Shown here: piece after piece, positions 36,948 to 61,230 of the stretch
Layout of the letters: each line of letters starts with the position of its first letter
Position numbering within the stretch: the stretch's first letter is position 1
Assembly (NCBI GenBank): GCA_964016885.1
Contig: OZ024741.1
Coordinates: 237,150,001 to 237,214,000, forward strand
Length of the DNA stretch: 64,000 nt
Origin: Eledone cirrhosa
Taxonomy: Eukaryota
Direction: 5' to 3'
Made by a program: the position numbers and the translations under genes
The notes under the pieces: generated by a model
The model's database searches: none
What the model was told of the DNA's origin: nothing
The model's input: only the letters and a program-made list of their open reading frames with translations

Positions 36948-36950
<3 letters not shown>

Positions 36951-37140
36951 CAAAGAGATATTTAATTTGTTGGTTATTCAACAAATTTATTTATAACAGA
37001 TTCAAAGCACTCTACAAGTTTTCTGGAGTATAATATCAATGATATTAATGAATGGAAACTATATTTATAAAACCATATTTATTTTATTATATATATTTCA
37101 AGGGTACCAACATTTTGGTACACTCTCATCAGATAAAATA
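36948..37140 (-). ncRNA. Type I hammerhead ribozyme (canonical core) plus about 130-nt tail; Penelope/retrozyme-like element
   Basis: Minus strand 37140-37080: TATTTTAT CTGATGA GAGTGTACCAA-AATG-TTGGTACCCTT GAAA TATATA TA ATAAAATA. This gives an 8-bp stem I, an 11-bp stem II with one mismatch and a palindromic stem III. Confidence 0.8.
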
Positions 37141-37199
37141 CAAAATTTATTTTATAAATGTTGACATACCCAAGAAACCAGACCTTATAGGTTCAGGTT

Positions 37200-38966
37200 C
37201 AGTTTGGATATAGCTCAATTCTTAGTTGGCCTACAAATGATGTACTAACAGAAAGTCCTACCTTGAAAGAAGTTGAAGTGGCTGGAAAACAATTCAATAA
37301 TAGAAAATTGCCAGGAAGGGATGGTATTTGTGCTGAGTTACAGAAATGTGGAAGTTGAAACATTCTTTGACTTCTTACAAACTGATACGTAAGGTTTAGG
37401 AAGAAGAAAGCATTCCTCAAGACTGGAAAGATGCATTGATGGTGGTGCTTTATAAAGGGAAAACTGCAAATGATGATTGTGGTAATTATCATGGGATAAC
37501 CCTCTTGTCAGTTTTGGGAAAAGTCCTGTGTAAGAACGTGATGAATAGATTGCTTGATAACATCACTAGCAATATTCTTCCTGAGTCACAGTGTGACTTT
37601 AGAAGTGGCAGAGGGACAATAGACATGATCTTTTTGTGAGGCAACTACAAGAGAAGTGCATTAGGGAATGGATTTGTATCACGTTTTTGTTGACTTGACA
37701 AAGGCTTTTGATACAGTGAACATAACTGCTTTATGGAAGATTCTGACTAAATTTGGTTGTCCTGACAACTGAGAGGGTTTCATGATGGCATGCAAGCTTG
37801 TGTTAATGTATGTGGAGAGGTGTCAGATCCCATTTTTGTTGAAAATGGGGTAAAACAAGGGGCATATACCAGCACATACACTGTTTGCATTATATTTCTC
37901 TATGGTTTTCCTTAAGGCAGTTGAGGATTGTACATATGGAATTTACCTCAAGTTTCATTTGATGGGTAAGTTGTTTAACATCAGATGGTTTGCTGCCAAA
38001 ACAAAGGTGCTCACTTCTTTAATACATGAATTTGTGTATGCAGATGATTGTGATCTTGTTGCTCACCCTGAGAGTGATGTGCAGCACCTGATGGATTCAT
38101 TTTCGGAGGCATGTAGTGCATTGAATCTGACAATCAGTCTGACCAAGACAGTTGTCGTGTATCAACATACTCCGGGCAAGGAATTCACTGAGACTAGCAT
38201 TTATGTGTATGACAACACATTGAAAGCTGTGGATAAATTTGTGTATTTCATCAATACTCAGTATCCATTGGAAACACGTGAGTGATGTTGAAGAGCTGAA
38301 ACAATGTTATTTTGAACGTACTGAATCTCTCATAATTCAATATAGATTGCGCTGGAGCGACCATGTTATAAGACTGCCACATGATCATATTCCTAAGCAG
38401 TTAGTTAAAGGCAACTGGCCAAGACATAAACCAAAACTCAGGTATAAAAACTACATCAAACGAGCTTTGATAAAAATAAAAAATCATAGAAGATAACTGG
38501 GAAGACATTGCCTTAGACCGATCATCATGGAGGAAAAGTGTATTTAATGGAAAACAGGAATTTGAAGAATCTTGTGTGGAGCATGAAAGGTTAAGGTGTG
38601 ATCTATGTAACGGTCTACACAATATTACTTTACATCGAAATGAGTGTAATGAGAGTGGTCAGATTTGTCTCAGTAAAGCTGGTCTTAGAAGTCACCATAG
38701 GAGTCGTGTACAAAATGTTGCTGATTATGGATTCTTTGGCATTTCTTCCAGTTGGAAGTGTGGAAAACAATGTGCCTCAGCTGGTGGATCCAAACGTCAT
38801 TTGAAAGCTCACCAAAACAAAACAAAACAGGGAACCAAATTGGAAGTAATGTTCATCACTGCAGCATACAAAGAAAGGAATGTAAGTCCTCTGCAGGTCT
38901 AAAGAGCCATGTTCATGGAACCCATGTGCGATGGGGGGAAGTGACATTTTTTGAAATTGAAATATA

Positions 38967-38972
<6 letters not shown>
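37200..38972 (+). mobile_element. BovB-like RTE LINE, degenerate, with C-terminal C2H2-like fingers
   Basis: DCGNYHGITLLSVLGK, LPESQCDFRSGRGTIDMIF, FVDLTKAFDTV, YADDC, RLRWSDHVIR, then CLSKAGLRSH, CGKQCASAGGSKRHLKAH and CKSSAGLKSH. Confidence 0.88.
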
Positions 38973-39040
<68 letters not shown>

Positions 39041-39179
39041 TTCTCAATCCTTTTGGAGGAATTCCTCCCTGGTGGACTTCTGCCTCTTTCTCTTTGGTTT
39101 GGGTCATGTCAGGGGTGTAGCCATGCTCAACACACGTCACCTTTGCTCCTGTAGCAATGTATGATTGTACTGCTGCATC

Positions 39180-39420
39180 AGTCATTGGGTATGACTGTGT
39201 GTTACTTGATTGACTATGTGGGTTACTAGTTTGATTCCTATCTCTCTTGATGCTTTTAGCTTCTCAGCAACTATCTCTGACAGTGCCGCAACTTTACCAT
39301 TCATCATCTCAATGATTGCATCAATTTCAATAGCTGGTCCTTCCTTTGGGTAAGTTGCAGGTAGTTTCTCTTCCTCAAATTCATTCTCTACATTCATCAA
39401 TCTCTCAAAACATTTCCATA
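39180..39420 (-). mobile_element. RTE fragment
   Basis: WKCFERLMNVENEFEEEKLP..EGPAIEID...GKVAALSEIVAEKLKAS...IVNQV. Confidence 0.8.
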
Positions 39421-39489
39421 TATATATACAATGGAACATTGATTCATGAACGCCTCTCATCACAAACAATTATTCTGAACAAAAAACAT

Positions 39490-39901
39490 CTCGGTTCATG
39501 TGCAGTGTCTCGAGTAGTGAACACGCAAGCTGATCACACAACCTTTACACTGTAAACTTGTGTTGGTATCATGACAAAAAGCATCCAGCCGACACTGTAA
39601 AGTGGTCGAGTAGGCATCATGACACAAAACACCCAGACCACACTGTAAAGTGATCGTGTAGGCATCACAACAAAAAGCACCCAGTCCACTCAGTAAAGTG
39701 GTCATGTTGGTGTCACGACAAGAAGTACCCAGCACACACTGTAAATGAGGTTGGCATTAGGAAGGGCATCCACCTGAAAGAAACCAAGTCAAAAGCAGTT
39801 CTGTATAAGCAAGGCATATCCACCTGAACTGGCATTTTACACAAAAGAAAAGGTTGTGTAATCTATGTTAGCGTGGAAAAATGGATGTTAAACAGTGATG
39901 A

Positions 39902-39905
<4 letters not shown>
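39490..39905 (+). mobile_element. RTE 3' UTR-derived repeat with internal tandem units of about 45-50 bp
   Basis: Repeated CACTGTAAAGTGGTCG...AAAAGCACCCAG units, the GGTTGGCATTAGGAAGGGCATCC motif and a (GAT)n end into (TA)n. Confidence 0.7.
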
Positions 39906-39983
<78 letters not shown>

Positions 39984-40222
39984 CTTGAAGTAAAGTTATG
40001 GTGTGTATTTTTTCCATAAGCAATTAAGACATTGAGCTTTCTGGCATTTGGTAAAGTGCGAGTGATATACCCATTCCTGTTCATCTCCTATATATGTATA
40101 TGTGTATATGTATATGTGCATATATATGTGTATATATATATGTGTGTGTATATATATATGTGTGTGTATATATGTGTAAATATATATATATGTGTGTGTA
40201 TATATGTGTATATATATGTATG

Positions 40223-40308
<86 letters not shown>

Positions 40309-40379
40309 TATATATATATATATATATATGAATATATATATATATATATATATGAATATATATATATATATATATATGA

Positions 40380-40410
<31 letters not shown>

Positions 40411-40470
40411 TGTGTGTATATATATATGTATGTGTATATATATATATATGTGAATATATATATATATATC
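39905..40470. repeat. Compound (TA)n/(TG)n microsatellites
   Basis: Read directly. Similar tracts occur at 36870, 38972, 41457, 42720, 45945, 50112, 50475, 53440, 56710, 58510, 60340 and 63380. Confidence 0.95.
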
Positions 40471-59732: not shown

Positions 59733-59913
59733 CACACATATATATATATAAATATAACGAAGGAATTGTAGTAAGGAACCAGATGGACCATAACGCACCA
59801 GAGTACTCAATACTTAGGGTAGCAGAGTGGGAAATAGGAAAAAGTATGACCCCGACGGCAGAGCTCAAGCCGTTTCGACGGCTATTTCTGGACTCCGTTG
59901 GATCATACTTTTT

Positions 59914-59949
<36 letters not shown>

Positions 59950-59955
<6 letters not shown>

Positions 59956-60105
59956 AACAAGTAAGACCCCGACGGCTGAGCTCAAGCCGTTTCGACGGCT
60001 AATTCTGGGGTCTTACTTGTTCCTATTACCCACTCTACTACCCTAAGTATTGAGTACTTTGGTGCGTTATGGTCCATCTGGTTCCTTACCACATTTCCTT
60101 CGTTA
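59950..60105. repeat. Family D partial copy joined to an inverted copy
   Basis: ATAGGAACAAGTAAGACCCC...GGGGTCTTACTTGTTCCTAT foldback continuing into the D tail. Confidence 0.75.
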
Positions 60106-60542
60106 TATATATATATATATATATACACATATATACATATAGATATATACATATAGAAATACAAATATATATATATATATATAAAGAATTCAATGTTTGA
60201 AGGCAATGACAATGCGGACTGCACAAACAATTAAGTCGTAAGAAACGAAGAGTGTCTTGTATATGTCTTGATATTTTGAAACTTACATCTCTTCTTCCGA
60301 GGAAAATAAAGGAATATTCTAGTGTCCGATGCAGACAAATATAAATATATATATATAAATAAATACAACTATAATAATACAAATATAAATATATATATAT
60401 ATATATATGTGTATATATATATATATGTATATGTATATATAAAAAATATAATATATATATACATATGTATCTGTATATATGAATATATATGTATATTTAA
60501 ATATATATATGTAAATACAATACATCTATATATATATATGTG

Positions 60543-60573
<31 letters not shown>

Positions 60574-60590
60574 ATGTGTGTGTATATAAT

Positions 60591-60623
<33 letters not shown>

Positions 60624-60634
60624 GTGTGTGTATA

Positions 60635-60679
<45 letters not shown>

Positions 60680-60682
60680 ATA

Positions 60683-60727
<45 letters not shown>

Positions 60728-60730
60728 ATA

Positions 60731-60802
<72 letters not shown>

Positions 60803-60835
60803 TAGGAGGTTAACTATATGTACAAACATTGCTAG

Positions 60836-60882
60836 TGCTCCGATGACTCCAAACAAAAGTTTGGAAGAAACGATTGTCAGCA
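60836..60882 (+). ncRNA. Degenerate minimal type I hammerhead
   Basis: TGCT CCGATGA CTCCAAAC-AAAA-GTTTGGAA GAAAC GATT GTC AGCA; U4C substitution and a mismatched stem II closing pair. Confidence 0.55.
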
Positions 60883-61230
60883 ATAAAATGATTTGAACAT
60901 AACTTTGATTATTGTGTAATTTATATATCTGTATATATGTATATAGAAATATATATATATATTGTATATATATAAGAAATGAACAAACAAGAGGATGCAT
61001 TAACAAAGTCGTATTAGTTTCACACTTAAAAGAAGGAGAGTAAGTTATGTACATAGGTATACATATATATATATATATACATATATTAATAATTCCTATG
61101 TGATCAGGTTATTGAATTTGGTTTTTGAATTCCAACATATTGTATTTGGTTGGGCATTCAAGCAAGCTACAGAGTCATATATATATGTATATCTTTTACA
61201 ACAGAAACAAAGGTCAAAGTTTTTGATTAA

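Follow-up and report, generated by a model that had tools for sequence, protein, structure and literature searches.

Hammerhead repeats of the window

The window analysed here is a stretch of 64,000 nucleotides from Eledone cirrhosa (GenBank assembly GCA_964016885.1, contig OZ024741.1, positions 237,150,001 to 237,214,000, forward strand), and coordinates below are counted from its first letter. Its region from 36.9 to 61 kb is a patchwork of (TA)n tracts, fragments of LINEs (long interspersed nuclear elements) and short repeats, among them families A to H, which carry hammerhead ribozyme folds or their remnants. Most of these units are quite probably 5'-truncated 3' ends of coding Hydra-clade Penelope-like elements (PLEs), accompanied by the non-coding units of families E and C, and a small bulged hairpin in their tails, of which GAGYRC forms one strand, likely sets the start of reverse transcription.

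Family A is present as the 3' end of a Hydra-type PLE at 36948..37210 (-), with an intact type I hammerhead (core CTGATGA at 37132-37126, 8-bp stem I), a hairpin at 37029-37009 and its far end on (TA)n, and as an older copy at 43460..43636 (+) that is cut inside the core and whose hairpin (43562-43581) has the inner stem CAA/TTG where the copy at 37.0 kb has CAG/TTG. Family B (42985..43250, +) is an old repeat of about 80% identity with a minimal hammerhead, decayed here (core CTGATCA at 43112), and no hairpin at its end. Family C occurs as an inverted arm joined to a partial forward unit at 44788..45047 (core 44907-44901, -) and as a 320-nt non-coding unit of tandem type at 45086..45367 (+), with a U3-A8 core at 45161, fixed ends at +142 and +168-171 and no support for a hairpin; both cores read TTGATAA. 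Family E (58993..59534, +) is a 486-nt non-coding unit with a terminal direct repeat, an intact hammerhead (core CTGACGA at 59377) and hairpins at 59049-59084 and 59164-59180. The family F copy at 59600..59735 (+) has a hammerhead core CTGATGA at 59610 in which GAAA is replaced by TAAA, and a decayed hairpin at 59676-59694. Family G, also a Hydra-type PLE 3' end (60799..60926, +; core CCGATGA at 60840), stops at its short end and is hence a hairpin-free copy.

Family D is represented by a back-to-back pair at 46243..46439 (long-end arm 46379-46247 on the minus strand, hairpin 46314-46291; short-end arm 46380-46439 on the plus strand), both arms of which begin in loop II, without the first core half; by a single long-end arm at 56572..56706 (+; hairpin 56635-56658); by a long-end arm with a short inverted piece at 59757..59917 (-; arm 59894-59757, hairpin 59828-59805); and by a second pair at 59951..60103 (short-end arm 60008-59951, -; long-end arm 60007-60103, +; hairpin 60032-60055), the forward arm of which starts at the predicted cleavage site. 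All four copies keep the GAAA/stem III half alone, the first core half being gone. The last of them belongs to a recurrent variant (L062-L090; at least 40 copies, 220 candidates) whose forward arm starts exactly at the predicted cleavage site, and which may reflect complementary DNA (cDNA) of cleaved RNA or a 2-nt microhomology at the junction. Family H had been overlooked in the preliminary description, the named families of which are otherwise real. Its three copies, at 46.8, 57.2 and 58.3 kb, are a young Hydra-type PLE 3' end (46776..47141, -) and two short-end copies placed back-to-back (57140..57530, -, core CAGAAGA at 57208; 58142..58520, +).

All the hammerhead sites listed initially are present in the sequence, and as a class they exceed chance: a strict type I descriptor (score of at least 10) returned 26 matches in 600 kb of random genome sequence against 0, 0 and 0 in three local shuffles, and 2 matches between 36.9 and 60.9 kb against a mean of 0.0 over 50 local shuffles. 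For a genome of 3.0 Gb this gives about 130,000 strict matches, as an extrapolation from the 600-kb random sample. No hammerhead appears among the 150 of 174 Rfam matches listed. Their portrayal as folds or remnants was apt in that most window copies have broken or incomplete cores: canonical complete cores occur only in family A at 37.1 kb and in E, the cores of B and F are mutated, and self-cleavage of any family is predicted from the letters. It does not suit the core at 45.2 kb and the intact D core, which are U3-A8 covariants. The intact D hammerhead, found outside the window copies, is of type I, with a U3-A8 core, a long loop II and a bulged stem II. In the young elements of families G and H, whose stems are intact, position 4 of the core is changed throughout the family, to C in G and to A in H.

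The families are multi-copy and, as had been noted initially, unrelated in sequence. First-look genome candidates number 3971 for A, 2409 for G, 1841 for E, 1645 for F, 1575 for C and 1265 for B, and at 60 random loci D was matched 12 times, F 15 times and H 11 times. Among the seven family references (A, C-H) blastn returned no pairwise match at E<0.01, and among nine window pieces, B included, the sole match was 18 nt between D and F.

Coding parents and non-coding units

Families A, D, G and H run upstream, by way of a 3' untranslated region (UTR) of about 1.0-1.3 kb, into Hydra-type open reading frames (ORFs) for a reverse transcriptase (RT) and endonuclease, so that the window copies of these families are truncated products of coding elements. 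In L406 family D has a complete ORF flanked by terminal repeats at either end (see also L225 and L274), and at least 40 of its long copies are identical over 151 nt spanning the core. Its ORF is 53% identical to that of family H, which has 713-aa frames and at least 150 copies (150/150 scored matches 98-100% identical). Family G lies downstream of a broken ORF in L354, L355 and L278, and family A downstream of a broken ORF in L351 that is continuous with L034. The link to Penelope elements that had been suspected is thereby borne out for these four families, and the statement that the window lacks a Penelope RT agrees with the finding of no PLE protein match there.

The Hydra clade is defined by RWK, by DKT replacing DKG, by a CxCX5C linker and by CxxC and CxH close to the C-terminus (Craig et al. 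2021, PMC8557442), and nearly all its families have canonical hammerheads and (TA)n insertion, including one member from Octopus bimaculoides, Hydra-1_Obim. The D and H proteins have RWR, DKT, YRDD, CxCX5C, CxxC and CxH; that of G has RWR, DKT and CxCX5C; and the A fragments, from which the N-terminus is missing, have CxCX5C, CxxC and CxH. The RWK motif thus reads RWR here. By these motifs all four families have a single ORF with RT and, at its C-terminus, a GIY-YIG endonuclease, although Pfam gives no match in H, and all four show the element structure of the clade, namely a hammerhead in the terminal repeat, a partial tandem or inverted structure, a tail and (TA)n insertion. On their protein motifs, we count all four as additions to the Hydra clade.

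Likeness to the published clade extends to the partial tandems, the inverted 5'-truncated copies and the one-sided tail (PMC8557442). Differences lie in the number of families (at least four here, two of them very young), in the 3' UTRs of about 1.0-1.3 kb and in the tails, which measure about 77-127 nt against the published 30-40 bp. The four families come close to being solo ends of catalogued Penelope elements, the reading that would have removed their novelty, though they may be uncatalogued.

A Pfam scan of the genome for GIY-YIG gave 10597 candidates, mainly Neptune- and Poseidon-type ORFs. Window families lying near such ORFs were considered as their ends and rejected as neighbouring insertions, except for H beside L140. 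The Neptune-type families of L121/L130 and L091/L115 have a U3-A8 core too, with tails of their own that lack the hairpin described below.

Tandem units of family E are spaced at 486 nt and those of C at 320 nt, with longest looped ORFs starting from Met of 52 and 56 aa, respectively. In having tandem units that are non-coding, a few hundred nt long and equipped with a type I hammerhead, E and C resemble retrozymes without long terminal repeats (non-LTR retrozymes), whereas A, D, G and H, as the ends of coding elements, do not form non-coding units. A recent paper argues that non-LTR retrozymes derive from PLEs and are non-autonomous (Li et al. 2026, bioRxiv 10.64898/2026.07.22.740005), and E and C likely borrow the enzyme of Hydra-type PLEs. 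The view of the whole set as non-coding elements mobilised in trans fits these two families only. Like metazoan non-LTR retrozymes (Cervera and de la Pena 2020, PMC7229834), they combine non-coding tandem units, type I hammerheads and a proposed dependence on PLEs; unlike them, they occur dispersed, as monomers to trimers, and have inverted arms and two fixed ends, with Hydra-type hairpins in E. Family F copies reach at least 190 nt upstream.

Among metazoan PLE hammerheads (Cervera and de la Pena 2014, PMC4209133), the present ones share the palindromic stem III/loop 3, the predominance of lone motifs left by truncated PLEs, pairs on opposite strands at a distance of 100-700 bp, the U3-A8 covariation (C, intact D) and a minimal form (B), and differ in longer stems II and III and in the position 4 changes of G and H.

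Family D had at one point been taken for a self-propagating, core-less hairpin element, a reading dropped once the intact D core surfaced through the ORF search. One genome-wide pattern for an intact D core had returned 32 matches, all of them deletion derivatives, and a second pattern a count near that of the control (10 against 3); they missed the intact form because the real stem II is bulged. A permuted (SGC) hammerhead in the order site-GAAA-CUGANGA (Eckert et al. 2023, PMC10085705) was likewise rejected, the intact D having ordinary type I order.

Fixed 3' ends and the bulged hairpin

Every one of the seven families measured (A, C-H) has 3' ends of two sharply separated kinds, a near or short end and a far or long one, at the following distances from the predicted cleavage site of the hammerhead: +20/+97 in D, +29/+122 in H, +59/+142 in A, +15-22/+87 in F, +48 and about +175 (the limit of the reference) in G, +142 and about +168-171 in C, and +81/+193 in E. 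These ends sit on TATA-like bases in every family. A TA run follows 172/186 arm ends in D, 75/98 in H, 55/65 in A, 59/82 in F, 39/46 in C and 33/37 in E, which amounts to 433 of 514 against a background of 7.9% and upholds the TA-repeat target preference claimed for these units; in G, where the reference stopped short of the far end, the count is 14/34.

The arms of head-to-head pairs are not combined freely. One long and one short end were found in 90 of the 93 classifiable pairs (113 pairs, 20 unclassified), and at loci not selected by the family concerned the mixed arrangement was found in 33 of 34 (41 pairs, 7 unclassified). D arms within one insertion differ by at most 1 nt in 11 of 20 pairs, as compared with 7.9% between insertions; three of the within-pair values are large outliers, probably misaligned, that were kept.

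GAGYRC, noted initially in several tails, is the 3' strand of a hairpin (R-Y-T-C ... G-A-R-Y) in which four outer pairs are combined with an inner stem and with a bulge of 2 nt, the first of them T. The five motif variants first listed are all present, at 37007 (-), 43575, 46289 (-)/56652/59688/59803 (-)/60049, 59465 and 45346, and the idea of a shared 3' signal has held, but the E and C instances are not the conserved element: AGTGAGTAC in family E was mistaken for the shared motif, the conserved copy of E reading GAAC instead. Family B has no motif of this type. A constant distance of the motif from the far 3' end, which had been suggested as a test, was rejected, as this distance ranges from about 13 to 90 nt; the motif is linked instead to the second, nearer end. 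In families D to H and in the 43.5 kb copy of A, the hairpin starts 6-9 nt beyond the final non-TA base of the near end, and a second hairpin starts 6-9 nt beyond the far end in D, G, H and the non-coding E. Where a tandem copy is full-length, the hammerhead is followed by the two hairpins and these by the ORF start, the second hairpin standing shortly before the latter (D, G, H). In family H this second hairpin is capped by a C-UUCG-G tetraloop (L392-L394, L397 leader). Families E and F thus share the Hydra-type hairpin, which B and C do not.

At 10 of the 14 ends tested the hairpin was recovered, with a frequency in shuffled sequence of at most 0.006. The misses were both C ends, the B end and the A near end, where the anchor matched another place; the hairpin of this A end was read from the sequence and from cluster tails. 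The outer pairs covary across families (ACTC/GAGT, GCTC/GAGC, GTTC/GAAC and TCTC/GAGA). Out of 41 hammerhead clusters, 38 with tails of at least 60 nt, seven that were unused in defining the hairpin (11, 13, 15, 17, 19, 30 and 38) carry it, with inner stems of 3-7 bp. The signal is strand-specific, sense tails with the hairpin numbering 51, 36, 12, 9 and 15 in clusters 0, 2, 3, 4 and 5 against 3, 0, 0, 0 and 1 in reverse, and the sense strand alone retains the G-U pairs and the bulge. Inspected visually, three of six published Hydra consensus sequences show the hairpin clearly (Hydra-2_Amil, Hydra-2_Ajap and the 5' start of Hydra-1_Ajap).

The 5' ends of arms are less uniform. In D 59 of 86 and in F 33 of 50 lie at -50..-28 of the cleavage site, a cluster that may mark the RNA 5' end or a stall at the ribozyme stems, and only 2 of 86 unbiased D arms begin within 3 nt of the cleavage site; counts are small for C, E and G (7, 2 and 5 arms). 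Since starts do not fall at the cleavage site, the hammerhead probably does not define the ends of most copies. In D, F, H and A the 5' ends also cluster about 65-80 nt upstream of the first hairpin, in differing parts of the ribozyme, a possible sign of a fixed copying length.

A possible role in starting reverse transcription

These observations suggest a mechanism with two reverse-transcription starts, one per cut strand, which we regard as likely. The Hydra-type protein would bind its own mRNA at the two hairpins, close to the 5' end, and the GIY-YIG domain would cut a (TA)n tract on both strands. From each DNA end, cDNA would then be primed just upstream of one hairpin, giving two starts on one RNA, such that a single event would yield one long and one short arm off the same RNA. 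The two cDNAs would mostly run off or stall after 60-200 nt and be joined head to head, and as the insertions would keep TA on both sides, later ones could land alongside and form clusters.

We lean, with some reserve, towards the wider proposition that in Hydra-clade PLEs the telomerase-related RT has as its binding and start signal a duplicated bulged RNA hairpin whose conservation reaches from corals and sea cucumbers to cephalopods, a pair of proteins on one RNA starting cDNA upstream of each hairpin from each end of a double-strand cut. Several observations weigh against the main reading of the units as truncated PLE ends with a hairpin start signal. The hairpin descriptor is post hoc, drawn from these very families, so that the shuffle values are optimistic, and genome-wide enrichment of the hairpin is just about 2.5-fold (112 vs 42-50). 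Family C has two ends with no hairpin and B has neither two ends nor hairpin, the second hairpin is not checkable in A and F (no read-through copy), and, in a genome search that was not exhaustive, B, C, E and F had no linked ORF in the loci examined. Among published consensus sequences viewed by eye, the hairpin is imperfect in Hydra-1_Amil and Hydra-1_Crog and was not seen in Hydra-1_Obim. Ends at -50..-28 account for 25/69 in H and 0/37 in A, so that run-off at the RNA start is not general, and the near-identity of paired arms could come from repair within the palindrome. The Neptune-type control (0/11, 2/13 weak and 0/1 with the hairpin) is weakened by tails cut at the first TA run.

An in vitro precedent exists in the Poseidon element PAc of Anolis, in which both target strands are cut and extended, ribozyme mutants still insert and a dimer is predicted (Frangieh et al. 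2024, PMC11167929). The two internal RT starts of PAc, which bound the tail just downstream of the hammerhead near the ORF start, would have counterparts in the present families, and an AT-rich target is shared as well. The starts of PAc lie in one AC-rich stem-loop inside the ORF, whereas here two hairpin copies stand in a non-coding leader, each past one end. Neither the twin hairpin nor the strict pairing of long and short ends was found mentioned in the available portion of PMC8557442, and no description of them, or of octopus PLE hammerheads, was found in the literature searched, which lacks most subscription papers.

That all families are independent non-coding retrozymes, excised by their hammerheads, possibly circularised and copied in trans, is unlikely, and for A, D, G and H is already contradicted by their continuation into coding ORFs. 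The tandem units of E and C (486 and 320 nt, Met-ORFs of 52 and 56 aa), whose lengths fall within the range of metazoan non-LTR retrozymes or close to it (PMC7229834), would suit such an origin, as would the excess of short D copies over long ones (0/26 random-locus arms reach past -100) and a terminal depth 20- to 200-fold above that of the ORF in contigs of one public RNA run. Yet half the core is missing from the short D copies and their junctions vary, fitting fresh production at each insertion, and the scarcity of D arms starting at the cleavage site (2/86) also speaks against excision.

The hairpins might instead act as DNA, recognised by the endonuclease (EN) when a tandem intermediate is resolved, the tail being a scar of resolution. 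EN-mediated resolution is how PMC8557442 accounts for the tail, and the EN of D. virilis requires the tail for recognition (PMC11167929); we nevertheless judge this quite unlikely, as only sense tails preserve the G-U pairs and the bulge and the RT starts of Poseidon in vitro coincide with tail ends (PMC11167929). A third possibility, to which we give very little credence, is that the two ends are short TA-rich patches of RNA pairing with the cut (TA)n, while the hairpins serve translation or RNA stability in the leader and stand near the ends by history. The TATA-like bases at the ends in every family, the second hairpin shortly before the ORF start and the two hairpin-free ends of C are in line with it, but other TA patches of the same tails are unused, the offset stays at 6-9 nt in sequences unrelated to one another, the non-coding E keeps both hairpins, and the strict long/short pairing is left unexplained.

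Hammerheads at PLE ends, (TA)n targeting by Hydra elements, inverted arms, tails and retrozymes as PLE derivatives have all been published before. What is left beyond these is a candidate RNA signal for a question that PMC8557442 names as open, namely how PLEs build tandem, inverted and tailed insertions. If the proposed start signal is real, it would explain the long-unexplained tail and inverted-arm structure of PLE insertions, and E and similar small non-coding units would be parasites of the system that keep no more than the two hairpins. The analysis also shows that a large share of the hammerhead-like motifs of the genome are by-products of PLE insertion, which need not be working ribozymes. 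Families D and H, young and with intact ORFs, together with E as a passenger with both hairpins, make the signal testable in the published in vitro assay.

Elsewhere in the window, further tails with the ATTGAGTAC motif occur at 9030-9300 (-) and 35150-35360, that at 35.2 kb being like family F. An extra hammerhead-like fold with a long stem II lies at 16850-17070 (-; core 17050), with a partial repeat near 17306-17361. The window also contains two intronless frames at 11823-13076 (+) and 27633-29678 (-) that we take to encode C2H2 zinc-finger proteins, as well as, presumably, LINE-type RT frames that are close to intact and oppositely oriented, along with a transposase-like frame (51264-56340, 62426-63145).

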